A DNA stretch of 32,000 bases from NCBI RefSeq assembly GCF_003289925.1, contig NZ_QLZQ01000002.1, positions 51,282-83,281 on the forward strand. The letters run 5' to 3'. This DNA is from Planococcus maitriensis (lineage in GTDB: Bacteria; Bacillota; Bacilli; Bacillales_A; Planococcaceae). Shown in pieces: positions 2,899 through 20,270 of the stretch. The position numbers and the translations under genes were made by a program. The number at the start of each line of letters is the position of its first letter. The first letter of the stretch is position 1. Below the pieces are notes generated by a model that ran no database searches, was not told the origin of the DNA, and saw only the letters and a program-made list of their open reading frames with translations.

Positions 2899-3183
2899 GT
2901 GCTTATAACCACTCCTTTTCAGAATGAAAGACATTGCGGGAAACAATTCCATCTCATTCGTATGTCCTTATTATGGATTTCCTGTGTTCAGGTTCCCATT
3001 AGGGAAAGTCCTATTGAATGGTTGGAAAACCCTTGTTCACATGAATGCCGGCACAGCCCAAAGCCCTTATCTGGGATATGGCGGGGCACAAGAGCCTGTG
3101 CAATGAATCATGATGATTCAAGAGTTCACGTTTATTCTGTCACCTATCCATTATTCATGAGCCTAAAATATCGGCAATTAAAA

Positions 3184-3225
3184 CAAAGAAAGCATCCTTC
3201 AACTCGCGAAAAGATGCTTTCTTTG
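3184..3225 (-). terminator. Rho-independent terminator after modC
   Basis: Arms CAAAGAAAGCATC (3184-3196) and GATGCTTTCTTTG (3213-3225) form a 13-bp stem. On the minus strand the stem is followed by TTTTAATT. Confidence 0.6.
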
Positions 3226-3236
3226 ACTGCTTTGTG

Positions 3237-3866
3237 CTATTGCTCTGCCATTTGACCTCTCTCAATCCGGAGGCTTCGATGGGCTAGTTTTTCCGCATCG
3301 CTCTTTCTATGAGTCACGAAAATGACCGGGATCTGCCAACGATCATGGATGCGCAAAAGTTGATGATGGCAACGGTCCCTTGTATCATCGTCCAAGGCTG
3401 AAAAGGGTTCATCCAACAACAGGATATCGGGCTTTGCAACCAATGCCCTGGCTAAGGCCACACGCTGCTTTTCACCGCCTGAAATCTGATGCGGATATTT
3501 AGCCAGGATTTCTTCGATTCCTAATATGTGAATCAGCTCTTTCAGCATAGGGCTATCCCGTTTTCCCTGCATGCTATAAAAGATATTCTGTTCTGCAGTG
3601 AAATGCGGAAACAGGGCATAATCTTGAAACAAGTATCCCACTTTCCGTTTTTGGATCTTTAAAGGTCTTTTACCCTCAGTATAAAATATGCGGCCGTTCA
3701 AGGAGATTTCCCCTTGATCTGGCTGTACAATGCCGGCAATACAATTGAGCAGGGTCGTTTTTCCGGAGCCTGAAGGCCCCGTCAGAGCCATGATCTCGTG
3801 ACCCAGTGTAAAGCTTATGTTCAAATCAAAGTTTTCGAGCCCTTTGCTGAAATCCGCGGCCAACAT
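3237..3866 (-). CDS. modC: Molybdate ABC transporter ATP-binding protein, short form without a C-terminal TOBE/Mop domain
   Basis: Walker A GPSGSGKTT, signature ISGGEKQR, Walker B ILLLDEP and H-loop VTH are present. The ATG at 3866 (MLAADFSK) has SD GGGAG and sits 5 nt after the modB stop. The longer track ORF (to 4163) overlaps modB in another frame. Confidence 0.85.
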   Translation of the reverse strand: MLAADFSKGLENFDLNISFTLGHEIMALTGPSGSGKTTLLNCIAGIVQPDQGEISLNGRIFYTEGKRPLKIQKRKVGYLFQDYALFPHFTAEQNIFYSMQGKRDSPMLKELIHILGIEEILAKYPHQISGGEKQRVALARALVAKPDILLLDEPFSALDDDTRDRCHHQLLRIHDRWQIPVIFVTHRKSDAEKLAHRSLRIERGQMAEQ

Positions 3867-5954: not shown

Positions 5955-7810
5955 CACAGAGCCCAAGCGAAACAAGGAATATAATCGGCCGAAATGACCC
6001 TTGCCCTTGCGAAAGCGGAAAGAAATACAAAAAATGCTGCGGTCAAGATGAGTCCGGAAAATATTTCGTGTTGGAGCAGAATCAAATCCTGCAGTCGATC
6101 CTGCGGGAGTTTTTCGAGAACCATCCCCGCCCTTCCCAACAGAAAGGCTTACTGGACTGGAAAAACAAAACCGAAGATCTCCTCGTCCCGCTATACGGGG
6201 AAGAGAAGTCGGGAAGCATAATCGGAGATGTATATTTCTTTTCGGAACAGGTCGCGATATGGAATGACTTTATTCAGCAGCATATGAAAAAAGAACAGCG
6301 TCCAACCATCCGAAAAGTTCTCGCCGATTGGCTGGATCCTGCTTTTATAGTCGGGGAAGTTCTTTCTATCACAGAGTACCGCGCACAGATGAAAGATGTT
6401 TTGACCGGTAGACAATACGAAATAGATGTTAATGAATCCTTTCCGGTTGAATCCGGAAACTTTGCGATCGGCTTCTTTTTGCCAGACAATCGTGTAGCTT
6501 CCCATTTTCTGATGGTGCTCAATAGTGTAACGATTTCAGCAGAAGTCAAACCAGAGACTGTTGAAAAATTAAAGCAGATGCAGCGTTCTTCTGAAGCGGA
6601 GACAGCAGAGAATTTCTATCGCCAAAATATGATTGCCATTTACCAAATGTTCAGTAGCGGGCTTCTCGCCAATCAGGAATTCGATACTGAAGTCATAGAG
6701 ACCGTGAAGAAACTAGAGCTATTCCTGATTGAAGAAGATGAAAAAAGCGAAGTGCTGATGGAAACATTCTTCCACTATTTGGCCAAACTCCCTCAAGTGC
6801 CTCCCTATGCGCTTGCAGGTGCAGTGCATTTCGGAGTCAAGCAGCAATTGTTGAAACTTTCTTGGCCACTTGAAAAAATAGCGGATTCATTCGATGCAAT
6901 TCAAGGTGAAATCGATACCTTTGCAGAAGAGTTACAGCTTTTCTATAAAACTGCGGATGGACATGAAGAAAAAGAGGCAGCGTATGCGTTTGAAGTCGGC
7001 ACCAATCCAAAGGCCACCGAAGCTCAAAACTGGCAAATCTTCATGCATTTGAAAAACGACAGCATTGCTAGCGAAGCTGCATTAAAGCGCAAGATGGAAT
7101 TCTATCGGACACAAGCTTATGAACCGAAGTCTGCGGCTGAACAAGCGCAACTTCTTGCTTACGAGCTTTATGCAGAAAATAACTTTAAGTTGCCCATCGA
7201 AAAAATAAAACAAATCCAACAGCTTGACCCCCGTTTGGCGGATGGTTTGCTGCTTGCAGCAGAAGCACAAAACGATCCTGTGGCGAAAGAGAGATTATTA
7301 AAAGAAGCTGTCGAGAATGGGCAATCAGCATACGAACCTGAAATGGAAATCTCATGGTTATACATTCCTAACCGGCCGTTTTTGCGGGCAGTCTTTTCGC
7401 GGGGTGTCTATTACTTCGAACAACAGAAGCTGGAAAAGGCCTTTACGGAATTCGAGAAATTACTGCATTTGAATTCAGGGGACCATCAAGGTGCTCGTTA
7501 TTTGGCTATTGCCTCCTTGATCGGGTTAAACAGGTTTGAACAAGCAGAAAGCTTGATCAAGCATTATGAAAAAGATTACTCCGATAATGCTTTTTATGCT
7601 TGGTTCAAGTGGTCCATACAGCGCCGCAAAAATTTGCACGCCCCATCCACGCAAGAGCTGTATATGAAAGCTTTGGACCAAAATCCTTACGTAAAAAAAT
7701 ATATCGACAAACGCCCTGCCGCGGAAGCTTATCCGAAAAAAATGGCCATAACGCCCCGCTCACCCGAAGAAGCGCGCTTGATATGGACATTTTTAGCCCC
7801 GACATTGTGA
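5951..7810 (+). CDS. SEC-C metal-binding motif protein with a C-terminal TPR-like region
   Basis: N-terminal GRNDPCPCESGKKYKKCCG is a SEC-C Zn-finger motif. The C-terminal helical repeats (EKAFTEFEKLLHLNSGDHQGARYLAIASLIGLNRFEQAESLI) are TPR-like. The gene is translationally coupled to 5529-5954. Confidence 0.7.
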   Translation: MTQSPSETRNIIGRNDPCPCESGKKYKKCCGQDESGKYFVLEQNQILQSILREFFENHPRPSQQKGLLDWKNKTEDLLVPLYGEEKSGSIIGDVYFFSEQVAIWNDFIQQHMKKEQRPTIRKVLADWLDPAFIVGEVLSITEYRAQMKDVLTGRQYEIDVNESFPVESGNFAIGFFLPDNRVASHFLMVLNSVTISAEVKPETVEKLKQMQRSSEAETAENFYRQNMIAIYQMFSSGLLANQEFDTEVIETVKKLELFLIEEDEKSEVLMETFFHYLAKLPQVPPYALAGAVHFGVKQQLLKLSWPLEKIADSFDAIQGEIDTFAEELQLFYKTADGHEEKEAAYAFEVGTNPKATEAQNWQIFMHLKNDSIASEAALKRKMEFYRTQAYEPKSAAEQAQLLAYELYAENNFKLPIEKIKQIQQLDPRLADGLLLAAEAQNDPVAKERLLKEAVENGQSAYEPEMEISWLYIPNRPFLRAVFSRGVYYFEQQKLEKAFTEFEKLLHLNSGDHQGARYLAIASLIGLNRFEQAESLIKHYEKDYSDNAFYAWFKWSIQRRKNLHAPSTQELYMKALDQNPYVKKYIDKRPAAEAYPKKMAITPRSPEEARLIWTFLAPTL

Positions 7811-9026: not shown

Positions 9027-9056
9027 TTTAATTAACTGTTTACTGGTTGTCTACTT

Positions 9057-9947
9057 TCATATCGCTTTTCCAGGAATTGCCGCTTCCTGCCGCTTTTCCG
9101 GCCAATTCACCAGGAAGATGCCTGTAAAGATCAATGCACCGCCAATGATGAGCGATACCCCGACCTGCTCCCCTAAGATCAGCCAGCCCGAGATGACACC
9201 GAAAAATGGCGCCAGGAATAAAAACGCGCTCACTTTCCCGGGATTGCCGTTTTGCAGCAGGAAAAACCAAATCGCAAACTGAATGATCGATGCCGGAATC
9301 GCCAGCCAGAAAATGATGAACAGCGATTCGGGATTGATGGCCAGCCGCTGGGTTTCCAACAAGCTGCTCGCCATCAGCAAAATCAAGCCGCCAAACAGCA
9401 TTTGATACGCCGTCAGCACCCACGTATCGAGCCGGATGCCCCAATGCTTGATCAATAAGGTACCAATTGCCCAGGACACGGCGCTGCCGAAGCCGAACAA
9501 CGTGCCGACTTCCAAGTTCACTTGGCTGCCCATCGTGATGAAGACACCGAAAAACCCGAGCAGCACCCCTCCCCATTGAACGATGCGGTAGCGAATGCCG
9601 AGTGCAACTGTGCCGAAAATCACCACCAATAAAGGATTGGTGAACGTCAAAATGGCGGATTCCCCGGCTGTGATCGTCCGAAGGCTCAGGAAAATGCAGC
9701 CCATGACGCCAGCGGTCTGGAAAAAGCCGATGATGAGAATATGAAGCCATTCGGAACGCTGCCGTGGGTGCTTGCGCCGGAACAGCTTGACGAATATGGC
9801 CATCAAGATGCCCGCAATCGTGAAACGGATCCCGACCAACAGCAGCGGCGAGACGTGTTCGAGGCCGATTTTGCCGACCGCAAATGAAGAACCCATCAAA
9901 CTGGTGGTGACGATGACGAGAAACGCGAAAAGGAATTTATGGTTCAC
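9057..9947 (-). CDS. EamA/DMT-family transporter
   Basis: 296 aa with about 10 predicted TM helices in two EamA-like halves. GTG start with SD AGGAG about 10 nt upstream. The alternative-frame ORF 9040-9750 is rejected. Confidence 0.8.
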   Translation of the reverse strand: MNHKFLFAFLVIVTTSLMGSSFAVGKIGLEHVSPLLLVGIRFTIAGILMAIFVKLFRRKHPRQRSEWLHILIIGFFQTAGVMGCIFLSLRTITAGESAILTFTNPLLVVIFGTVALGIRYRIVQWGGVLLGFFGVFITMGSQVNLEVGTLFGFGSAVSWAIGTLLIKHWGIRLDTWVLTAYQMLFGGLILLMASSLLETQRLAINPESLFIIFWLAIPASIIQFAIWFFLLQNGNPGKVSAFLFLAPFFGVISGWLILGEQVGVSLIIGGALIFTGIFLVNWPEKRQEAAIPGKAI

Positions 9948-10100
9948 AGTGCATCAGCTCCTAGCTGCATGAAAGAACTCATCCAAAAATATTCTAAAAG
10001 TTTTGTCTATTGTTCTATCGTATCGCAATTCCGCTCCGTTTTCCTTAACTTCTTTGAAATTGGCCACATTTCATGCATTGCTGGAGGTTAATTTCCCTGC

Positions 10101-10143
10101 AAAAAAACCGGAAGCATCTTTTCGAATGCCGCTCCGGTTTTTT
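10101..10143. terminator. Bidirectional-looking terminator downstream of the VOC gene
   Basis: AAAAAAA, then CCGGAAGCAT...ATGCCGCTCCGG, then TTTTTT: an imperfect stem flanked by an A-run and a T-run. Confidence 0.5.
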
Positions 10144-10158
10144 GCATTGCAAATTCTA

Positions 10159-10554
10159 TTAGTCATCGATCACAAGGAAGTTCCAGCGATGCCCGTCCAC
10201 ATCCGAAAACCCTGCTCCGTACATGCCGTTTCGCTCACCCGGTGGCGCAAAGATGGTGCCGCCTGCCTGTTCGATACGGAAAATGAAGTTATCCACTTCT
10301 TCAGCGGTTTTTGCCGATAGCGAAAACAATACCTCAGAGCCGATCGATGTATCGGCGATAGCTTGCTGCGTAAAGGCTTTAAAGCTTTCTTCCGGAAACA
10401 GCATCACATACAGATGTTGGCCTTCCAAATAAAACGCTGCTTGCTGGCCATTGCTGGAATCCGCTTTTGGCGTCAAAAATCCAGCTTGTTCATAAAAAGC
10501 TGTGGCCGCCTGCAAATCCTTCACCGGCAAATTGATCCACATTCTGCTATCCAT
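10159..10554 (-). CDS. VOC (glyoxalase/bleomycin-resistance/dioxygenase) family protein
   Basis: 131 aa. The pattern MWINLPVKDLQAATAFYEQAGF...GYGAGFSDVDGHRWNF is typical of small VOC proteins. SD GAGGTG lies 7 nt upstream. Confidence 0.7.
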   Translation of the reverse strand: MDSRMWINLPVKDLQAATAFYEQAGFLTPKADSSNGQQAAFYLEGQHLYVMLFPEESFKAFTQQAIADTSIGSEVLFSLSAKTAEEVDNFIFRIEQAGGTIFAPPGERNGMYGAGFSDVDGHRWNFLVIDD

Positions 10555-10759
10555 TAAGCTTCACCTCGTTTCCATCCCTAAGACGAATGCGGAGAGGATT
10601 GTTGAAAATCCTATATGGCCTTTTTCCTTCCTGCCCCCCTTCTGATTGCTCAGCTTCCGTGATTGTTATGTTCCTATTCCCGGCGTGCTTGTTTGCAAAC
10701 TTCTCATACAGGCCGCTAAACACGTGAATATTCCTCTTCCGCAAGCAAGAGCCGCTCCG

Positions 10760-10788
10760 TTGACTTTCCTTAAATGCTGCTTTAATGT
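10760..10788 (+). promoter_or_regulatory. Sigma-A-type promoter for the YeeE-family gene (TTGACT-17-TAATGT)
   Basis: TTGACT at 10760-10765, a 17-nt spacer, and TAATGT at 10783-10788. Confidence 0.45.
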
Positions 10789-10832
10789 AATATTTTATTC
10801 CCTACTATATCACTCAGAAAAGGATGTTTTAC

Positions 10833-12092
10833 ATGACGACTAGCACACGGGTCCAACCCGTCAATGAAGTAAACGATCCCGTCTACCGGGACACGATCGC
10901 CTTGAACGCACCGCAGAAATCCTTGATTGTCGGTGGCATCTCGGTGGCGGCATTGTTGACCGTCTATCTATTGGCTACGCAGCATATCGCACAAACCGTG
11001 CTACTTGGCATCGGGCTGTTACTGGGCTATACCTTATTCCATGCACGGTTCGGCTTTACGTCCGCGTTCCGCCGCTTCATGTCGGTCGGAAACGGACAGG
11101 CGATGCGCTCGCATATGCTCATGTTGGCGGTGGCCGTGACCTTGTTCGCGCCGATTCTGGCGTATGGCTATTCGTTCTTTGGCACCGAAGTGTCAGGCTA
11201 TGTTTCCCCGGTCGGCGTGAGCCTGGTCGTCGGGGCGTTCATCTTCGGCATCGGCATGCAGCTCGGCGGCGGCTGCGCTTCCGGTACGCTGTATGCAATC
11301 GGCGGGGGGCGTTCGGTCATGTTCATCACGCTATTGTTCTTCATTATCGGAACGACGATCGGCGCATATCATCTGCCGTTTTGGACAGAAGATTTGCCGG
11401 CTTTTGAACCGGTGTCACTGGCAACGTCTACAGGGCTTGGCTACGGCGGCGCATGGCTCGTGTCAATTGCGTTGTTTGGGCTCGTTGCCTGGATTACCTT
11501 GATCATCGAGAAAAAGAAACGCGCACCGAAAATGGCGCCGCTTCCGACCACGACGGGATGGCAACGCATTTTCCGCGGGTCATGGCCGTTGTTTGCCGCA
11601 GCGATCGCACTTGCTGTGTTGAACGCGTTAACCTTGCTGACACGTGGAACGCCTTGGGGCATCACCTCCGCATTCGCGTTATGGGGCTCGAAAATCGCTG
11701 AATTCTTCGGCGTGGACGTCGCGAGCTGGGGCTACTGGGAAGGGGCAAACGCAGCGATGCTCGAATCGTCGATTTTCGCTGATTCCACCACGGTGTTGAA
11801 CTTCGGGGTCATCCTGGGCGCCTTTCTCGCTTCAGCAGCGGGCGGTTTGTTCAAGTTCACCAAAATCACGATGGGGAATTTCTGGGCATCCATTGTCGGC
11901 GGCTTGCTGATGGGCTACGGGGCCCGCCTTGCGTTCGGCTGCAACATCGGGGCCTATTTCGGCGGCATCGCTTCATTTAGCTTGCACGGTTACATCTGGG
12001 GCATTCTGGCACTCGCCGGTACGTTCTTCGCTCTGTACTTGCGGCCTTTGTTCGGCCTGTCTGTCCCGAAATCCAACGATTCGGTGTGCTGA
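10833..12092 (+). CDS. YeeE/YedE-family inner-membrane sulfur (thiosulfate-type) transporter
   Basis: Polytopic membrane protein with the two family-typical Cys motifs GGGCASGTLY and FGCNIGAYFGG. The second ATG (10833) is preferred because SD AAAGGA abuts the first ATG (10824). Confidence 0.8.
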   Translation: MTTSTRVQPVNEVNDPVYRDTIALNAPQKSLIVGGISVAALLTVYLLATQHIAQTVLLGIGLLLGYTLFHARFGFTSAFRRFMSVGNGQAMRSHMLMLAVAVTLFAPILAYGYSFFGTEVSGYVSPVGVSLVVGAFIFGIGMQLGGGCASGTLYAIGGGRSVMFITLLFFIIGTTIGAYHLPFWTEDLPAFEPVSLATSTGLGYGGAWLVSIALFGLVAWITLIIEKKKRAPKMAPLPTTTGWQRIFRGSWPLFAAAIALAVLNALTLLTRGTPWGITSAFALWGSKIAEFFGVDVASWGYWEGANAAMLESSIFADSTTVLNFGVILGAFLASAAGGLFKFTKITMGNFWASIVGGLLMGYGARLAFGCNIGAYFGGIASFSLHGYIWGILALAGTFFALYLRPLFGLSVPKSNDSVC

Positions 12093-12108
12093 TCATAATA
12101 AACCATGC

Positions 12109-12140
12109 AAAAGGTGCACCCATTTGGATGCACCTTTTTT
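12109..12140. terminator. Bidirectional terminator between the convergent YeeE gene and the S-box operon
   Basis: AAAAGGTGCA (12109-12118) pairs with TGCACCTTTT (12129-12138), and a T-run follows. The A-run on the left provides a U-tract for the minus strand. Confidence 0.7.
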
Positions 12141-12157
12141 GTTTGGCCGCTGACCGG

Positions 12158-13540
12158 CTAAATTCCGATCGGTACTGCCTGCTTGACGAAGCGGTGGCCC
12201 GGATGTGCCGGGTTCAGCCGGTCCCCTTTTTGGAACAAGTTGTCACGCAATGTCGCCCCTTTGTATTCGGCCTGCACAAGCCCCCGCTCCTGCAGAATCG
12301 GCACCACCAATTCGATGAAGTCGCGGAAGGTGCCCGGGGTGACGGCATAGGCGATATTGAAGCCATCCACGCCAGCTTCCGATACCCAGCGTTCGAGCTC
12401 ATCTGCCACTTGTTCAGGGGACCCGACCGTTACCGGTCCAAGGCCACCGACGCCGACAAAATCCCGGATGTCCTGGACGGTCGGCTGTTTGCCGGGAATG
12501 ATTTTCGTGAAATTCTCTAACGCCGACTGGATGGCGTCATTTTCGATATACTCGAGCTTTTGGTCCGGGGCGTAGCTCGATAAATCGATGCCTGTCCAGC
12601 CGCCAAACAAGGCCAGGGCGCCTTCATGGCTGATGTGCTTTTTGTATTCTTCGTATTTCGCCTGGGCTTGTTCCGCCGTGGGCGCGACGATCGGCGTGAT
12701 CAAGGTCAAAACGAGTACATCCTCGGGCGCCCGGCCTGCATTGATTGCCGAATGGCGGATGTTGTCGACCGAGCGTTTGGCGATTTCAATAGTGGGTGCG
12801 CCGATAAAGACGCATTCGGCATGCTTCCCGGCAAAGGCAGCTCCTTTTTTCGAAGCGCCGGCCTGGAACAAGACGGGCGTGCGCTGCGGCGACGGTTCGG
12901 ATAAATGTGCGCCCGGCACTTGGAAGTATGTCCCCTTGTGCTCGATGTCGTGAACTTTAGCGGGATCTGCGTAAATGCCCGTTTCTTTATCCACGATGAC
13001 CGCATCGTCTTCCCAACTGCCTTCCCAGAGCTTATAGCACACGTCCGCATATTCATCGGCGATGTCATAGCGTACGTCGTGCTTCACTTGTTCGGCGCCG
13101 ATATTCTCCGCGGCGCTTTTCAGGTAGGAGGTGACGATGTTCCAGCCGACACGCCCGTCCGTCAAGTGATCGAGCGTCGACATGCGCCGGGCGAACGTGT
13201 AAGGATGTTCATGCGTCGTCGAGGCGGTGACCCCGAAGCCGAGATGCTTGGTGACGGCGGACATCAATGGCACGACAAGAGCCGGGTCATTGACGGGGGA
13301 CTGGGCGCCTTGGCGCACGGCTGCATCCCTCGAGCCCTGGTAGACATCATACGTGCCGAGTACATCGGCGAGAAACAAGGCATCGAATTTGCCTCGTTCC
13401 AATAATTGTGCGAGTTCAATCCAGTACCGGCTCCCTTTGTATTCGTGCGAGCGGTCTTCCGGGTGTGTCCAAAGCCCGGGCGACTGGTGCCCTGCGCAGT
13501 TCATGTCAAAAGCATTCAAAACGATCCGTTTGTTCGTCAT
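12158..13540 (-). CDS. LLM-class FMNH2-dependent monooxygenase, NtaA/SnaA/DszA (YxeK/YtnJ-like) family
   Basis: About 460 aa. It reads IVLNAFDMNCAGHQSPGLWTHPED...FDALFLADVLG...RRMSTLDHLTDGRVGWNIVTS...YKLWEGSWEDDAV...SPQRTPVLFQAGAS...HAECVF. The start is placed at the second ATG (13540) because SD AGGAGGA abuts the first (13546). Confidence 0.85.
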   Translation of the reverse strand: MTNKRIVLNAFDMNCAGHQSPGLWTHPEDRSHEYKGSRYWIELAQLLERGKFDALFLADVLGTYDVYQGSRDAAVRQGAQSPVNDPALVVPLMSAVTKHLGFGVTASTTHEHPYTFARRMSTLDHLTDGRVGWNIVTSYLKSAAENIGAEQVKHDVRYDIADEYADVCYKLWEGSWEDDAVIVDKETGIYADPAKVHDIEHKGTYFQVPGAHLSEPSPQRTPVLFQAGASKKGAAFAGKHAECVFIGAPTIEIAKRSVDNIRHSAINAGRAPEDVLVLTLITPIVAPTAEQAQAKYEEYKKHISHEGALALFGGWTGIDLSSYAPDQKLEYIENDAIQSALENFTKIIPGKQPTVQDIRDFVGVGGLGPVTVGSPEQVADELERWVSEAGVDGFNIAYAVTPGTFRDFIELVVPILQERGLVQAEYKGATLRDNLFQKGDRLNPAHPGHRFVKQAVPIGI

Positions 13541-13562
13541 CGTCATTCCTCCTTTTTGTGGG

Positions 13563-14096
13563 TTACAGCAGGACTTTCCGTGAAGCGATGGCCGCAGTCA
13601 GTTCCGACAGCTGCCGATCGAGCCGGGCAGAGAGTTCTTCGTCTGTGATCGGGGCATGGGGCTGTGTTTTATCGATTTTGTCGTCGATGATATAAACGCC
13701 TTGCAAGGTTTGCCCTTTCAAGGCCGCGAGCAGCGGCTTGAAGGAATATTCAAGGGCGAGCAAATGATTGGCGCTGCCGCCGGTCATCAGCGGCAGCACC
13801 GGCTTGTCACGGAAGGCATCGCTCGGCAGCAAGTCCAGCAAGGCTTTCAACACCCCGCTGTAGGCTGCTTTGTATACCGGCGAAGCGATGATGATGCCAT
13901 CCGCTTCTTGGATTTGGCGCTGGATGTGCTGGATTTCCGTACTGTTGAAATTGGCACCCGCCAAGTCCGCAGCCGGCACGTCCTGGACGGATACGTAGGC
14001 GGTGTCATGGGACAGGCGATTTCCGGCGGCGCGCAAGACGAGGTCTGACCTTGAATGGGCCGAAGGGCTTCCAGATATCAATAGGATGTTGCTCAT
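13563..14096 (-). CDS. ssuE: NAD(P)H-dependent FMN reductase (SsuE-like)
   Basis: ILLISGSPSAHSRS...ASPVYKAAYSGVLKALLDLLP...LPLMTGGSANHLLALEY closely follows the SsuE pattern. SD AAGGAGAG favours the ATG at 14096 over 14102. Confidence 0.8.
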   Translation of the reverse strand: MSNILLISGSPSAHSRSDLVLRAAGNRLSHDTAYVSVQDVPAADLAGANFNSTEIQHIQRQIQEADGIIIASPVYKAAYSGVLKALLDLLPSDAFRDKPVLPLMTGGSANHLLALEYSFKPLLAALKGQTLQGVYIIDDKIDKTQPHAPITDEELSARLDRQLSELTAAIASRKVLL

Positions 14097-14163
14097 GTTC
14101 ATCTCTCCTTATAGAGGCTTGAATGATGGTTCCGGTGAATGGTTCTTTAGTAAATCCATTTTT

Positions 14164-15915
14164 TTACTTGGGAATGGCCGTAGACAAAGCCGAGTCGCTG
14201 GCGTTTATGACGGGTTCTTCATCGGCATTCCATGTTTTCAGCTGGCGCCGCAAAATTTTGCCGCTGATTTTCGTTTTCGGCAACTCGGCAAGCACTTCAA
14301 TCTCACGGGGGGCTGCATGGGCCGATAGCTGCGAACGGACAAACAGCCGGATCTCTTGAAGCAGCTCAGGGGTATTCTGATATCCGGGCTTTAGCACGAT
14401 GAACGCCTTGACGATCTCACCGCGCAGCGGATCCGGTTTGCCGACGACACCTGCTTCTGCGACCGCCCCGTGTTCCAATAGTTTGCTTTCCACTTCAAAC
14501 GGCCCGATGCGTTCGCCGGAGGAATTGATCATGTCGTCGCTGCGCCCCTGGAAAAAGACGTAACCATCGGCGTCCTGATAGGCGAGATCTCCCGACAGAT
14601 ACCAGCCGTCGAACTGGAAATAGGACCGGTATTTCTCTTCGTTTTGCCACACTTCGCGCATCAGTCCTGGCCACGGGGCGCGGATCGCCAAATGGCCGAT
14701 GTCGCCTGGCGCCTGTTCGATTCCGTCATCATCGAGAATGCGGATGTCGATGCCCGGGAATGGCCGGCCCATCGACCCCGGCTTAATCGGTTCGGACGGC
14801 AAATTGACGATGAGCTGTGCGCCTGTTTCCGTCATCCACCACGTGTCGTGGATGCGCAGGCCGAGCTGTTCGACGCCCCAATAGATCACTTCTGGATTCA
14901 ATGGCTCCCCGACACTGAGCACATGGCGCAGCGTACTGAGGTCGTATCGTCCCACCAGTTCATCCCCTGCCGCTTTTAACATGCGAAATGCGGTCGGGGC
15001 GCTGTACCATACCGTGACACCCGCTTTTTCTATCGCTGCATACCAGGAGTCGGCGTCAAAGCGCCCGCCGTTCACGACGATGGTCGCGCGGTTCAGCCAT
15101 GGCGCGAAAATGGCGTAGACGGTACCCGTCACCCAGCCTGGATGCGCCGTGCACCAATAGATGTCGTCGTCCTTGATGTCCAAGACCCAATGGCCGGTTT
15201 GATACTGATGGATCATCGCCCGGTGTGCATGGACGATTCCTTTTGGCTTGCCGGTGGACCCGCTCGTGTAATGGATATTGAGCGGGGCGTCCAAGTCCAC
15301 CCATTCGGTCGGCGACCCGGAAACGAAGGTATCCGCCAAGATATCGGTCCAGGAAATTTCATTGTCCCGGCATGATTCCGGCCCGGCTGTCACGAATACT
15401 TTCTCGAGAGACGGCAAGTCTTTGCGCGGAACACGCGCAGCAAGGTCTGGATCGGTGATGAGAAAGCGTCCCTTGCAATCATCGATACGGTCACGCACCG
15501 CTTCTTCCATGAATGCTTCAAAGAGCGGCCCGGCGACAGCCCCGATTTTCACTGTTGCGAGCATCGCAATATAGCAATCGGCGTTTTTCGGCAGGAAGAT
15601 GAAAACGATATCGCCCCGCTTGACTCCTTCATTGCGGAAGGCGGTTGCCCAGCGATCGGTCTCCTGTTTCAGCTCGGCGAATGTCCACACCCGCTGATGC
15701 GCGCCCTCAATGTAATGCAGTGCCGGCTTGTGTCCATAGCCATCCTCTACGTGCCGGTCGATGCATTCATGGGCCATGTTGACGCGCTGGGTCTTGCTCC
15801 AGCTGAATTGCCGTTCGGCTTGTTCCCATGAAAACGTGCGGCATGCCTCTTCGTAGTCTGTTAAGTTCGGTGTATTGCCGGCATCCAATGCCGGCGCCAA
15901 TACAGTTTGTCTCAT
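14164..15915 (-). CDS. acsA: AMP-forming acetyl-CoA synthetase-like adenylating enzyme (Bacillus AcsA type)
   Basis: 583 aa with the motifs YTSGSTGKPKG, WWMTETG, YLSGD, GRSDDMINSSGERIGPFEVES and PKTKISGKILRR. It appears collinear with my recollection of B. subtilis AcsA (not alignment-verified). SD AAAGGAGGGG lies 5 nt upstream. Substrate is not established. Confidence 0.8.
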   Translation of the reverse strand: MRQTVLAPALDAGNTPNLTDYEEACRTFSWEQAERQFSWSKTQRVNMAHECIDRHVEDGYGHKPALHYIEGAHQRVWTFAELKQETDRWATAFRNEGVKRGDIVFIFLPKNADCYIAMLATVKIGAVAGPLFEAFMEEAVRDRIDDCKGRFLITDPDLAARVPRKDLPSLEKVFVTAGPESCRDNEISWTDILADTFVSGSPTEWVDLDAPLNIHYTSGSTGKPKGIVHAHRAMIHQYQTGHWVLDIKDDDIYWCTAHPGWVTGTVYAIFAPWLNRATIVVNGGRFDADSWYAAIEKAGVTVWYSAPTAFRMLKAAGDELVGRYDLSTLRHVLSVGEPLNPEVIYWGVEQLGLRIHDTWWMTETGAQLIVNLPSEPIKPGSMGRPFPGIDIRILDDDGIEQAPGDIGHLAIRAPWPGLMREVWQNEEKYRSYFQFDGWYLSGDLAYQDADGYVFFQGRSDDMINSSGERIGPFEVESKLLEHGAVAEAGVVGKPDPLRGEIVKAFIVLKPGYQNTPELLQEIRLFVRSQLSAHAAPREIEVLAELPKTKISGKILRRQLKTWNADEEPVINASDSALSTAIPK

Positions 15916-15941
15916 CAGTGCCCCTCCTTTTATGACCCATA

Positions 15942-16089
15942 CAAAAATCCCCCACTTCCAAGAAGAGGGGGATGTCCTCTTCTCATCTTCCAGCCACTAT
16001 AGGCTGCAGGAAGTAGCACCTGTGCAAGTAATACTTGCCGGTTGCCGGGTTTCATCGGGCCTGGTCCCTCCACCACTCTTGATAAGAAG
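15942..16089 (-). promoter_or_regulatory. SAM-I (S-box) riboswitch, proximal copy, with intrinsic terminator
   Basis: Minus-strand sequence: CTTCTTATCAAGAGTGGTGGAGGGACCAGGCCCGATGAAACCCGGCAACC...AGGTGCTACTTCCTGCAGCC...GGCTGGAAGATGAGAAG. P1 pairs CTTCTTATC with GATGAGAAG, giving an aptamer at about 15979-16089. The terminator ATCCCCCTCTTC-TTG-GAAGTGGGGGAT plus TTTTT spans 15942-15973. An antiterminator could form between GAGAAGAGG and CCTCTTCTT. Confidence 0.9.
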
Positions 16090-16133
16090 TGCTGCTATGT
16101 AATTGTTGAGCTTCGCGCGAATCATGCAGTCAA

Positions 16134-16282
16134 TAAAAAAACAGACCTTCCAAGAAGGTCTGTTAGCCCTCTCTTATCTGCCAAACGGAAAATCCGTTTG
16201 TTGGAAGTAGCACCTTGGCAAGTTGCCTTGCCGGTTGCCGGGCTTCATCGGGCCAATTCCCTCCGCCTCTCTGGATAAGATA
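16134..16282 (-). promoter_or_regulatory. SAM-I (S-box) riboswitch, distal copy, with its own intrinsic terminator
   Basis: Minus-strand sequence: TATCTTATCCAGAGAGGCGGAGGGAATTGGCCCGATGAAGCCCGGCAACCGGCAAGGCAACTTGCCAAGGTGCTACTTCCAACAAACGGATTTTCCGTTTGGCAGATAAGAG, giving an aptamer at about 16172-16282. The terminator ACAGACCTTC-TTG-GAAGGTCTGT plus TTTTTTT spans 16134-16163. Confidence 0.9.
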
Positions 16283-16325
16283 TGAACGTGTCGTTGACGA
16301 ATGTTTCAAATTCGCTATGTCGACC

Positions 16326-16354
16326 ATATTAAATCAAGATTTTCGGTCTGTCAA
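16326..16354 (-). promoter_or_regulatory. Sigma-A promoter driving the tandem-riboswitch leader (TTGACA-17-TAATAT)
   Basis: On the minus strand, TTGACA (16354-16349), a 17-nt spacer and TAATAT (16331-16326). The predicted TSS is about 35 nt upstream of the distal aptamer. Confidence 0.65.
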
Positions 16355-16521
16355 CGCCATTTTTCCAAAAAACTTGAAAAATTCCGATTTTTCTTATAGG
16401 GATTAAAAAATGGCCGTCCCCTTACCGCTTATCGCCCTGCCTCCTGCTTCTTCGTTCTTGCGCACCCTTCAGCTTGTTCAAGATATTTCCCCGAAATTAT
16501 TCCAAACTTTTTCTTCATTAT

Positions 16522-16562: not shown

Positions 16563-17330
16563 ATGCAGGAAGTCACAGTTTGTTCCATCGCATCGGGCGC
16601 AGCCGCTCCAGCCGCCCAAGCAATGCATCGCCATTCGCTGGCCACCGAGATCTGGTGGGTGAGCGAAGGCTTATTGGACATCGAAGCGGGAACGCAGCGC
16701 ATTGCGCTCCAGCCCGGCGAGTTGCTGTTATTGCCTACAGGCGTCTGGCATCGGCTATGTTCCGAGCCTTCTGTCCCGTGCAGCTGGCATCGAGCGGTCG
16801 TGGCGGTGCCAGACGTTGGTTGCGGGGAAGTTTTCCGGCTGCAACCGAAAAATCCACGCTATATCAGCTCGCTTTTCATGGAACTGGAGCGGCTGTATCC
16901 GGAAGATCCAGGGAAATCCGCTTTGATCGCCTCACTCTTGCTGAAAGAAGCCGATCAAGTGATGAGACATGTACCGGAAGCGCTCTTTATGGCGCCCCTG
17001 CAGCATGAGCTTGAAGAAACTTGCCATTTGCCGTTTTCATTGGAAGCTGCCGCTCAGTTCGCGGGCATGAGCAAATACCATTTCAGCCGGAAGTTCAAGG
17101 AAGCCTGCGGGCTATCGCCGCTTCAATTCGTTATCCATTGCCGGGTGGCGCGGGCGGAGAAACTGTTGAAAGAAACAAGCCAGCCGCTTTCTTCGATTGC
17201 CTCTGCTTGCGGCTACCATAGCGCGACCCAGTTCCACGCAGTGTTTACCCGGATTATCGGTGAAACGCCGATGCGCTACCGCAAGGCCCATCAAGCGCAC
17301 TTTGGAAACGGAGGGGTTACCATTGAATGA
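16563..17330 (+). CDS. AraC-family transcriptional regulator (N-terminal cupin, C-terminal HTH)
   Basis: Cupin-like LLLPTGVWHRL, and an AraC HTH region AAQFAGMSKYHFSRKFKEACGLSPLQFVIHCRVARAEKLL...ACGYHSATQFHAVFTRIIGETPMRYR. Confidence 0.85.
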   Translation: MQEVTVCSIASGAAAPAAQAMHRHSLATEIWWVSEGLLDIEAGTQRIALQPGELLLLPTGVWHRLCSEPSVPCSWHRAVVAVPDVGCGEVFRLQPKNPRYISSLFMELERLYPEDPGKSALIASLLLKEADQVMRHVPEALFMAPLQHELEETCHLPFSLEAAAQFAGMSKYHFSRKFKEACGLSPLQFVIHCRVARAEKLLKETSQPLSSIASACGYHSATQFHAVFTRIIGETPMRYRKAHQAHFGNGGVTIE

Positions 17331-17900: not shown

Positions 17901-17905
17901 CTTCG

Positions 17906-19501
17906 TTAATTGACTTTTTTGCCACCGCCCCAATACATTTCACGCAATTGGAACTTCTGCAATTTACCGGTCGCCGTCTTCGGCAAGGCTTCCACGAAGT
18001 CGACCGATTTCGGTACTTTGAAGCGCGACATGTTCTCACGCGTATAATCAAGGATTTCCTGTTCGGTCACTTCTGCGCCTTTGTGCAAGACGATGATTGC
18101 TTTTGGCACTTCGCCCCATTTCTCGTCCGGAACCGCGATGACCGCAACTTCCGCGATCGCCGGGTGTTTATAGAGCACGCCTTCGATCTCGGTCGAGGAA
18201 ATGTTCTCGCCGCCGGAGATGATCATGTCCTTGATGCGGTCCTGGATTTCGATAAAGCCGTCCGGATGCGTCACCGCAAGGTCGCCTGTATAGAACCAGC
18301 CGTCGCGGATCGCTTCTGCGGTTTTTTCCGGGTCTTTGTAATAACCGGCCATGACGACGTTCCCGCGGGTGATAATTTCCCCCAGTTCCTTGCCGTTCCA
18401 GGCAACTTCTCTTCCATCGTCCTGGTTGACGACTTTCGTTTCGCCGTTGAAGGCCAGTTCGATGCCTTGGCGTGCCTTGATGCTCGCTTGGGCATCGGAA
18501 TCAAGATCGTTGAATTCGTTTTTCCATTCGCAGTACAGGATGAACGGAGACGTCTCGGTCAAGCCGTAGACGTGCATCATATTCAAGCCCAAAATTTCCT
18601 GGGCTTTGGCGATGAGTGCCGCAGCAGGCGGTGCGCCGGCTGTGCCCATTCGGATTTCCGTTTTCAAGTCGATCTCCTTCGCTTTCGGCTCGTTGACGAG
18701 CATATTGACGACCGTCGGCGCGCCGCATAGCGAGGTGATGCCATGGTTTTCGAACAAATCGAGGATGAGCGGCGGATCGACCTTGCGCAAGCACACGTGC
18801 GTCGCGCCAGCCGCTGTGATCGCCCACACCCCGCCCCAGCCGTTCGTATGGAACATCGGCAAGGTATGCAAATAGACATCATCGAACTTGATCTCCAAAT
18901 GATGCAGGAAGTTGGCGCCGTTCAGGTAATTCGTCCGGTGCGTCTGCATGACGCCTTTCGGATTGGAGGTCGTGCCGCTTGTGTAATTAAGCGACAGCAT
19001 CTGGTTTTCATCCAGTTCGACAGCAGGCAATTGCTCCCCTTCTGAAACACTGCCGATGAATTCCTCGTAATCGACGCCTTTAAGGTTCGTCTCATGGCCT
19101 TCTGCCGGCACGATGATGTATTTTTCGATCGGCAAGTCATCTTGGATATCCTCGATGATCTTGGCATACTCTGCATCGACAATCAGCATCTTCGCATCGC
19201 TATGTTTGATGATATAACCCAAGTCTTTGGCGGACAGCCGGTAATTGAGCGGTACGATGACCGCGCCGAGCGGCGTGATGCCGTAAAAGGCTTCAAGCAT
19301 ATAATGTGTATTCGGCAGCATCACTGCGACATGGTCTTTTTCGTTGATGCCTGCATTATGTAAGGCGATCCCCAACTGGTCGGAGCGGCGTGCAAACTCC
19401 TTGTACGTGAAACGCTTGTCCCCGTCGATGACGGCCACTTTCTCCGGGTAATACTTTACCGCGCGTCGTTTCCAGTCCAGCGGTGTCAATGGTACGATCA
19501 T
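17906..19501 (-). CDS. Acyl-CoA synthetase / fatty-acid-CoA ligase (AMP-binding family)
   Basis: 531 aa with YTSGTTSNPKGV, YGLTETS, YTGDL, ISGGENISSTEIE and PKTATGKLQKFQLR. SD GAGAGGGG lies 8 nt upstream. Confidence 0.85.
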   Translation of the reverse strand: MIVPLTPLDWKRRAVKYYPEKVAVIDGDKRFTYKEFARRSDQLGIALHNAGINEKDHVAVMLPNTHYMLEAFYGITPLGAVIVPLNYRLSAKDLGYIIKHSDAKMLIVDAEYAKIIEDIQDDLPIEKYIIVPAEGHETNLKGVDYEEFIGSVSEGEQLPAVELDENQMLSLNYTSGTTSNPKGVMQTHRTNYLNGANFLHHLEIKFDDVYLHTLPMFHTNGWGGVWAITAAGATHVCLRKVDPPLILDLFENHGITSLCGAPTVVNMLVNEPKAKEIDLKTEIRMGTAGAPPAAALIAKAQEILGLNMMHVYGLTETSPFILYCEWKNEFNDLDSDAQASIKARQGIELAFNGETKVVNQDDGREVAWNGKELGEIITRGNVVMAGYYKDPEKTAEAIRDGWFYTGDLAVTHPDGFIEIQDRIKDMIISGGENISSTEIEGVLYKHPAIAEVAVIAVPDEKWGEVPKAIIVLHKGAEVTEQEILDYTRENMSRFKVPKSVDFVEALPKTATGKLQKFQLREMYWGGGKKVN

Positions 19502-19547
19502 TTCAAAAACCCCTCTCGTGTCTCTTGTGTTCAGCTGTTATATATCA

Positions 19548-19576
19548 AGTATAGAAAGGCGAATACGGGCTGTCAA
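19548..19576 (-). promoter_or_regulatory. Sigma-A promoter for the acyl-CoA ligase (TTGACA-17-TATACT)
   Basis: On the minus strand, TTGACA (19576-19571), a 17-nt spacer and TATACT (19553-19548). Confidence 0.6.
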
Positions 19577-19715
19577 CGGAAGTTTCGGAATTGGCGGAAA
19601 AATGAAACAATGGAGTTTTTGTGTTATAGCACAATTCATCCCGGCCAAGCCACGAACTGCTTCTTTTATTTTCGCTAAATGATGCGACTTGGAATGAAGG
19701 CATTGAAGTGGCCAA

Positions 19716-20270
19716 TTAGTCCCTGGACACCGCGTATTCGCTTTTTAGAATCGCCAAATAATCGACATCTTCGAAGGCTCCATCCATGAAAAATTCCTGT
19801 TTGAAACGGCCTTCGAATACCATGCCCGCCTTCTCCAGCACACGCCGGGATGCGGGGTTGCGTACGAGGCAGCGGCCGAACAACCGATTCAAGCCGTGTT
19901 CGGCGAAAGCTATGTCGATCACTTTGCGGCACGCTTCCGTGGCATAGCCCTGTCCCCATTCTCCGGGATCGATGAAATAGCCGATCTCGCCTGAACGGTG
20001 GGCCTTTGATAGGCTCACCAATCCGCAATTGCCGATATAGCGAGCAGGCTGTTCCTTCGTGAAGACGGCATATTCGAAAGCATGCCCGACCTCAAAGCTT
20101 TTCTGTACATAATCCAGCCAGCCCTCGAGTTGTTTTCTCGGATACGGGTGCGGAATCATTAGCATCGTGTCTGCAATTTCCTGTTTTCGGACCACTTCAT
20201 AAACCCCGTCTGCCATATTCATTCGGTATGGCTTCAACCATAGCCGTTCAGTTTCCGCTATTGTGGGCAT
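19716..20270 (-). CDS. GNAT-family N-acetyltransferase (RimJ/RimL-like)
   Basis: 184 aa. GEIGYFIDPGEWGQGYATEACRKVIDIAF carries the acetyl-CoA-binding Q/RxxGxG/A motif, and NPASRRVLEKAGMVFEG is also present. SD AGGAGGTG upstream. Confidence 0.8.
   Translation of the reverse strand: MPTIAETERLWLKPYRMNMADGVYEVVRKQEIADTMLMIPHPYPRKQLEGWLDYVQKSFEVGHAFEYAVFTKEQPARYIGNCGLVSLSKAHRSGEIGYFIDPGEWGQGYATEACRKVIDIAFAEHGLNRLFGRCLVRNPASRRVLEKAGMVFEGRFKQEFFMDGAFEDVDYLAILKSEYAVSRD

Follow-up and report, generated by a model that had tools for sequence, protein, structure and literature searches.

A survey of riboswitch arrangements has catalogued 164 double SAM-I riboswitches, together with one triple (Sherlock et al., 2022, RNA Biol, PMC9481103). 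A second study describes tandems of two S-adenosylmethionine (SAM) riboswitches that precede ssuABC-like, metNIQ, hom and amhX genes in Bacillota (Microb Genom 2025, PMC12452182). The tandem thiamine pyrophosphate (TPP) riboswitches of Bacillus anthracis tenA (Welz and Breaker, 2007; cited in PMC9481103 and PMC2258182) also place two terminating riboswitches for the same ligand in series and provide an experimentally studied model for the behaviour expected of such leaders, although their ligand and aptamer class are different. In the metE leader of Bacillus clausii, two terminator-based OFF switches, one of them a SAM-I riboswitch and the other responding to adenosylcobalamin (AdoCbl), share a single leader and act as a NOR gate for two ligands (Sudarsan et al., 2006). 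Here we analyzed a stretch of 32,000 nucleotides from Planococcus maitriensis (RefSeq assembly GCF_003289925.1, contig NZ_QLZQ01000002.1, positions 51,282 to 83,281; hereafter the window), in which two complete SAM-I (S-box) riboswitches precede an operon that begins with the gene for an AcsA-type acetate–coenzyme A (CoA) ligase (ACS). We consider it very probable that this leader comprises two independent SAM-I OFF riboswitches arranged in series on one transcript, an arrangement that has been termed “pseudo-cooperative”.

The architecture of the P. maitriensis leader shows no difference from that of the catalogued doubles. As in those, two complete SAM-I units, each consisting of an aptamer and an intrinsic terminator, are followed by one open reading frame (ORF) with none between them, the gap is shorter than 300 nt, and both units are of the OFF type for one ligand (PMC9481103). 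The leader differs from that of B. clausii metE in its inputs, and two-input logic is not expected here because both inputs are SAM. The tandem architecture is thus already known, and the leader is not a new kind of regulator. A preliminary description of this DNA, made from the sequence alone, had presented tandem complete riboswitches of one class as rare. That framing is out of date in view of the 164 doubles and one triple and of the SAM-SAM tandems in PMC12452182, and its list of precedents (TPP-TPP and SAM/AdoCbl) was incomplete because same-class SAM-I tandems are documented.

Scanning the whole window at Rfam gathering thresholds returned exactly two matches, both to the SAM-I family RF00162 (gathering score 44.4), both on the minus strand and both covering the full model (positions 1-108 of 108). 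Coordinates are given throughout as window positions, and all elements of the leader lie on the minus strand. Aptamer 1 occupies 16171-16281 (88.2 bits, E = 6.6e-20) and aptamer 2 occupies 15980-16088 (87.9 bits, E = 8.2e-20), with a start-to-start distance of 193 nt. Both scores are twice the gathering score, and because they lie so far above this threshold, Rfam-based annotation would be expected to flag both aptamers. The preliminary description had placed two complete SAM-I units in this leader at coordinates within 1-2 nt of these matches, and the core strings and P1 strands (GATAAG and GATGAG) that it quoted are present as stated.

Both copies match all strongly conserved positions of the Rfam consensus. 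In an alignment of 15 related aptamers, the segments UCUUAUC, AGAG, GGAGGGA, GGCCC, GAA, GGCAACC, AGGUGCU, UCC and AGAU-AG are invariant. The columns that form the ligand-contact core in the published SAM-I structure (the A-U/U-A pairs of P1, AGAG in J1/2, GCAACC with its bulged A in P3, and GGUGC) are likewise invariant in both window copies and in the 15 aligned relatives. The P1 helix of aptamer 2 (GAUGAG) includes one U-G pair, at position 5, which lies outside the ligand-contacting A-U/U-A pairs. Both aptamers are complete, canonical SAM-I aptamers.

Base pairing was counted across the 15-aptamer alignment for the named P1-P4 helices and for the pseudoknot between the P2 loop and J3/4, using as a control the same structure with the 3′ partners slid by 1-3 columns. 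Standard pairs occupy 96% of cells, compared with 36-49% in the slid controls, and 13 pairs covary on both sides. Two of the four pseudoknot pairs covary among the 15 sequences. Compensatory differences separate the two window copies in P2 (C-G versus U-A), in P4 (CAAACGG/CCGTTTG versus CAGCC/GGCTG) and in the pseudoknot, which is UUGG/CCAA in aptamer 1 and CAGG/CCUG in aptamer 2. The earlier observation that the variable helices P3 and P4 differ between the copies yet remain paired is borne out for P4; the P3 stems, on the other hand, are essentially identical (GGCAAG/CTTGC), with differences confined to the loop and one closing pair.

For comparison we used loci encoding ACS relatives, 80 from species-representative genomes and 8 from closer relatives, which were scanned with Rfam and with our own covariance model, derived from the matches. 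Two full SAM-I aptamers in the same layout, with ACS directly after the leader, occur in six Planococcus loci: L001 (sp. SSTMD024), L081 (sp. SIMBA_160), L082, L083 and L084 (all three metagenomic) and L085 (P. maritimus). Their ACS proteins are 78 to 88% identical to that of the window. A single SAM-I aptamer was found in L003, L005, L006, L008, L009, L021, L023, L029 and L088, while L002 (P. salinus), L013 (a Bacillaceae metagenome-assembled genome) and L017 (Bhargavaea) carry separate tandems with one terminator per aptamer. As to which number is usual, a question that the preliminary description had left to orthologous leaders, leaders with one aptamer and leaders with two are both common among operons of this family, and a Planococcus clade stably retains two. 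The copies correspond by position across genomes: aptamer 1 of the window is 85% identical to aptamer 1 of L001 and aptamer 2 is 86% identical to its counterpart, compared with 75% between the two copies within the window. The duplication therefore predates these Planococcus species, in agreement with the ancient duplication proposed earlier. A neighbour-joining tree of the aptamers, which are only about 110 nt long, is clear only for this positional orthology between the window and L001 and for the within-genome clustering of the L013 copies.

Each aptamer is followed by a predicted intrinsic terminator and by an alternative pairing that could compete with it, as the preliminary description had proposed; the support comes from a terminator scan, from folding and from the alternative pairings. 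Terminator 1 (T1; 16135-16164), identified by both scan and fold, has an 11-bp stem capped by a 3-nt loop, then a U7 tract; the scan placed its stem at 16164-16140, followed by T7. Folded in its 66-nt context, it reaches -24.8 kcal/mol (z = -4.2 relative to shuffled sequences). A terminator hairpin at this position is found in the four aligned Planococcus leaders with two intact aptamers, and in a further locus, L086 (P. lenghuensis, CP019640), the corresponding segment has decayed along with its aptamer. The putative terminator 2 (T2; 15941-15973) has a stem of 7 + 4 bp (15973-15947; AUCCCCC-U-CUUC, loop UUG, GAAG-U-GGGGGAU), followed by UUUUGU. It is the centroid structure of its segment, at -16.9 kcal/mol, and was missed by a simple terminator scan because of its internal U/U mismatch. 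A homologous hairpin with a U-tract is present in the aligned leaders of L001, L081, L083, L085 and L086, the one in L001 having been confirmed by folding, and it is this conservation at the equivalent position in relatives that supports T2.

The candidate antiterminator of unit 1 (16152-16173) pairs GAGAGGG (16173-16167) with CCUUCUU (16158-16152) and overlaps both the 3′ strand of P1 and the 5′ strand of T1. It appears in a suboptimal fold at -14.8 kcal/mol, compared with -15.9 kcal/mol for the terminator, and an outer helix, GCAGAU/GUCUGU, would lengthen it as far as 16181 on the upstream side and about 16141 on the downstream side. Its counterpart in L001, the closest relative in the genome collection, is a perfect GAGAAGG/CCTTCTC helix, which lends support to the pairing in the window. 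In unit 2, when the 5′ strand of P1 is blocked, the minimum free energy fold switches to a 9-bp helix (15960-15984) between GAGAAGAGG (15984-15976) and CCUCUUCUU (15968-15960), which uses up the 5′ strand of T2 and shares 5 nt with the 3′ strand of P1. As folded, it would be a textbook antiterminator. The two are unequal in strength, the 7-bp helix with wobbles in unit 1 being weaker than the 9-bp Watson-Crick helix in unit 2.

The loop context CTTCTTGGAAG, common to the two terminators, had been offered as evidence of tandem duplication. The CTTCTT that they share complements AAGAG of the P1 3′ strand, and pyrimidine-rich 5′ terminator strands occur in other, unrelated tandem S-box leaders (CCUUCUCUU, CCUCUUCU and CUCUCUUCUU). 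The shared motif therefore owes at least as much to the demands of antiterminator pairing as to common ancestry, and it is weak evidence for duplication because the antiterminator needs it and unrelated tandems have similar strands. T2 sequesters neither the ribosome-binding site AAAGGAGGGG (15930-15921) nor the start codon ATG of the first gene (together 15913-15930). Translational control by unit 2 was considered and rejected as the main mechanism, the ribosome-binding site lying at least 10 nt past the U-tract and being unpaired in the predicted fold. Because this site lies beyond the T2 U-tract and is free, both units are predicted to act on transcription.

Segment conservation was expressed as mean pairwise identity among four two-aptamer Planococcus leaders. 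The two aptamers stand out as islands of conservation, at 84% for aptamer 1 and 90% for aptamer 2, compared with 47-74% elsewhere in the leader (promoter 68%, 5′ leader 58%, T1 69%, spacer 66%, T2 74%, and the stretch before the ATG 47%). Together with the covariation and the compensatory differences between the copies, this supports the earlier proposal that both aptamers are kept by selection. Duplicated aptamers can nevertheless decay, as P. lenghuensis illustrates. Its second aptamer is intact (94.7 bits with Rfam), whereas the first (3582-3686 of L086), directly upstream, scores 23 bits with our covariance model and falls below the Rfam threshold. The core of this first copy is mutated, from GGCAACC to GATATCC and from AGGTGCTA to AGATGTCG, while its homology is still recognizable. 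It thus appears from its sequence to be a decayed duplicate under relaxed selection, unlike either copy in the window. Just upstream is a transposase gene (2215-3390). The same locus also contains an Rfam match to abiF RNA (892-928, minus strand; 38 bits against a threshold of 37) near toxin-antitoxin genes, which is unrelated to the riboswitches.

The example of P. lenghuensis raises the alternative that one of the two units in P. maitriensis is likewise a non-functional relic of duplication and that regulation is exerted by a single riboswitch, an idea to which the modest quality of both T2 and antiterminator 1 also lends something. Each window copy, however, reaches about 88 bits along the entire model, and in the four Planococcus leaders each is better conserved than the sequence around it; where P2, P4 and the pseudoknot differ between the copies, the changes are compensatory, and both terminators are kept in relatives. 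Since the copies are full-length and conserved above their surroundings, since their differences are compensatory, and since decay elsewhere looks different, we regard a relic as very improbable.

The double SAM-I leader is compact, at about 440 nt in total, and contains a single promoter-like site. This is the sigma-70-type TTGACA-17-TAATAT at 16326-16354, which had been noted as near-consensus in the preliminary description, was recovered by our scan and lies upstream of unit 1; five Planococcus leaders all share TTGAC in its -35 element. The aptamers are separated by a gap of 82 nt that contains no called gene and no promoter-like site, only spurious antisense ORFs. The spacer between the two units (16089-16134), which is likewise free of ORFs, returned no promoter-like site in the consensus scan, a method that cannot prove the absence of a start site. 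Directly 5′ of aptamer 2 the spacer holds the block AATTACATAGCAGCAC (16104-16089). Among the four Planococcus leaders in which both aptamers are intact, this block varies by no more than one substitution, and in L086 it is only partly conserved; it is conserved though the remainder of the spacer is not. A similar sequence, ACATAGCGAA (16310-16301), is located 3′ of the -10 element of the unit 1 promoter. The block could belong to the unit that was duplicated, or it could have a role in processing or structure.

These features bear on whether the units are in series at all. Unit 1 with T1 might instead give rise to a separate, riboswitch-derived small RNA, with unit 2 being transcribed from its own promoter in the spacer. 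Such an arrangement would accommodate the strength of T1, the conserved block just upstream of aptamer 2 (16104-16089) and the sequence TTGACT (16133-16128), which resembles a -35 element. An internal promoter built on TTGACT was nonetheless rejected as a candidate: on reading the sequence we found nothing resembling a -10 element 16-18 nt further on, and the scan detected no promoter-like site in the spacer at 9 or more matches out of 12. Apart from the block, the spacer is also poorly conserved (66%). With no promoter-like site in the spacer, separate transcription of unit 2 appears very unlikely.

With two riboswitches in series, transcription would start from the single promoter (16354-16326) and the polymerase would meet two successive decision points. 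When SAM is bound, P1 would be held closed, the antiterminator would be blocked, and T1 (16164-16135) or T2 (15973-15941) would end transcription. When SAM is low, the 3′ strand of P1 would be free to pair with the 5′ strand of the terminator, and the polymerase would read through. Only transcripts that passed both checkpoints would reach the operon, so that output would be the product of two read-through probabilities. A pseudo-cooperative arrangement of this kind has been described for tandem TPP riboswitches, and exactly this behaviour is expected in the literature for double SAM-I arrangements (PMC9481103).

We infer the shape of the response curve from a toy equilibrium model of two identical, independent switches. 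In this model the apparent Hill coefficient reaches only about 1.1-1.2, and maximal repression is squared (for example, from 10-fold to 100-fold). The steeper, more switch-like response anticipated in the preliminary description is therefore retained only as a modest effect, and what changes substantially in the model is the depth of repression. Because repression is squared while the Hill coefficient stays at 1.1-1.2, the main benefit of the tandem would be a much tighter OFF state with modest steepening, rather than a markedly digital curve, and kinetic control could alter this expectation.

Several points weigh against the serial reading or limit what can be expected from it. SAM binding and SAM-dependent termination at T1 and T2 are predictions from sequence. 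T2 taken alone is not significantly more stable than shuffled sequences (z = -1.0), and it is followed by a short, interrupted U-tract. Antiterminator 1, with 7 bp that include two G-U pairs, is weak, and unless the outer helix forms it shares only 3 nt with P1. The gain in steepness in the toy model is small, so that a “digital” response cannot be taken for granted. Kinetic control is also common among riboswitches of this type, and an equilibrium model ignores it.

The small steepening obtained even with identical switches also bears on another reading, in which the switches differ in the SAM level or folding kinetics to which they are tuned and the tandem widens or stages the response, with a coarse and a fine component, without sharpening it. 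The copies have long been distinct (75% identity), their antiterminators are unequal (7 bp with wobbles versus 9 bp of Watson-Crick pairs), and the U-G pair in P1 of aptamer 2 recurs, being found in L081, L083, L086, L002 and L013 as well as in the window. Set against this are the identical ligand-contacting cores of the two copies and the published expectation that the members of such tandems have similar sensitivity. On balance we judge differential tuning unlikely, and we continue to favour two independent OFF switches in series.

The first gene predicted to be controlled by this tandem (14164-15915, minus strand) encodes an ACS of 583 amino acids, matching NCBIfam NF003313 at 790.8 bits (cutoff 729). 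The protein is 100% identical to an NCBI acetate–CoA ligase named for Planococcus maitriensis, and among solved structures its best relative is PDB 9g79 (727 bits), an acetyl-CoA synthetase of the AcsA type. Two further genes follow on the minus strand. One encodes an SsuE-type NADPH-dependent flavin mononucleotide (FMN) reductase (13563-14102; TIGR03567, 199 bits, cutoff 164), and the other an NtaA/DmoA-family monooxygenase dependent on reduced FMN (FMNH2) (12158-13546; TIGR03860, 569 bits), whose best solved relatives are the dimethyl-sulfide monooxygenase DmoA (6ak1, E = 3e-161) and LadA (3b9n). No promoter-like site was found by scanning within the operon (11900-14300), and a probable operon-end hairpin terminator, read from the sequence, lies at about 12109-12140 on the minus strand and would be shared with a convergent YedE-like gene. 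The operon looks like a module for sulfur scavenging or methionine supply.

This gene content can be set beside the SAM-SAM tandems of PMC12452182. The lineage (Bacillota) and the sulfur/methionine theme are shared. The L002 and L017 loci reproduce its pattern, with a tandem SAM-I leader, genes for an SsuA/C/B-like ATP-binding cassette transporter between the leader and ACS and, in L002, homoserine dehydrogenase after ACS. The window is different in having no transporter genes, its tandem standing directly before ACS, which is followed by the SsuE/DmoA-like pair. Among the entries retrieved from the enrichment table of PMC12452182, the window gene set (ACS with the SsuE/DmoA-like pair) was not seen, and among the entries listed from its supplement, Planococcus appears with T-box elements only.

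The SsuE/DmoA-LadA-like pair (12158-14102, minus strand) behaves as an insertion-deletion among close Planococcus relatives, being present in the window, L083 and L084 and absent from L001, L081, L082 and L085. In L086 the pair has its own SAM-I riboswitch at 7131-7238 and is followed by a gene for a pyridoxal phosphate-dependent enzyme of cysteine/methionine metabolism. Proteins encoded by the flanking genes of the window are 94-97% identical to those of Planococcus sp. SSTMD024. At the nucleotide level, the leader and ACS (14235-16393) share about 75% identity with that strain, compared with about 86% for the flanks (9054-12090 and 17902-19882), so that the regulated segment either diverges faster or was exchanged.

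A gene for an AraC-family regulator with cupin and helix-turn-helix domains (16563-17330, plus strand) is divergent from the riboswitch promoter. A divergent AraC-family gene is also present in L001 and L081-L085, the six Planococcus loci in which a gene of this family was seen, and the window protein is only 42% identical to that of L001. This regulator may add control of initiation on top of SAM-dependent attenuation. Convergent with the operon is a gene for a YedE/YeeE-type sulfur-transport membrane protein (10824-12092, plus strand), and upstream of the leader lies a gene for a second acyl-CoA synthetase (17906-19501, minus strand) with weak similarity to 3-(methylthio)propionyl-CoA ligase; neither has a riboswitch, and both fit the sulfur theme.

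Across the related loci, the AcsA-type paralogue recurs with an SsuABC-like transporter, homoserine dehydrogenase and a MetY-like enzyme (L002, L017, L086, L087 and L088). A SAM-I leader precedes the paralogue cluster in L002, L017, L086 and L088, and none was found within 4 kb upstream in L087. This recurrence suggests that the paralogue contributes acetyl-CoA supply or acetate recycling to methionine synthesis based on O-acetylhomoserine. Searches of the literature found nothing on such a role of an AcsA paralogue, nor any report linking S-box/SAM riboswitches to acyl-CoA synthetase, sulfonate or monooxygenase genes. One could go further and propose that the tandem guards a previously undescribed, SAM-repressed route from scavenged organosulfur compounds to methionine. 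In such a route, the DmoA-like monooxygenase and the SsuE reductase would release methanethiol or sulfide, and a dedicated AcsA paralogue would supply or recycle acetyl-CoA for O-acetylhomoserine. A requirement for a very tight OFF state would then explain the repeated acquisition of two SAM-I switches by this module. We put this forward as a speculative proposal that is unlikely to be correct. In a related reading, the two aptamers would be set to different SAM thresholds.

In practical terms, the P. maitriensis leader is a clean, compact example of a double SAM-I riboswitch in which both units are under selection, the two-copy form is found in several Planococcus species, and P. lenghuensis provides a natural decayed-copy control. 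Because the searchable literature yielded no biochemical characterization of any double SAM-I riboswitch, the leader is a good test case for whether such tandems sharpen, deepen or stage the response to SAM. The more original lead is metabolic, namely a putatively SAM-repressed AcsA paralogue and a DmoA-like monooxygenase that recur with homoserine and sulfur-uptake genes. Together, the genes for the AcsA paralogue and for the DmoA-like two-component monooxygenase would broaden the S-box regulon towards metabolism that merits closer study.

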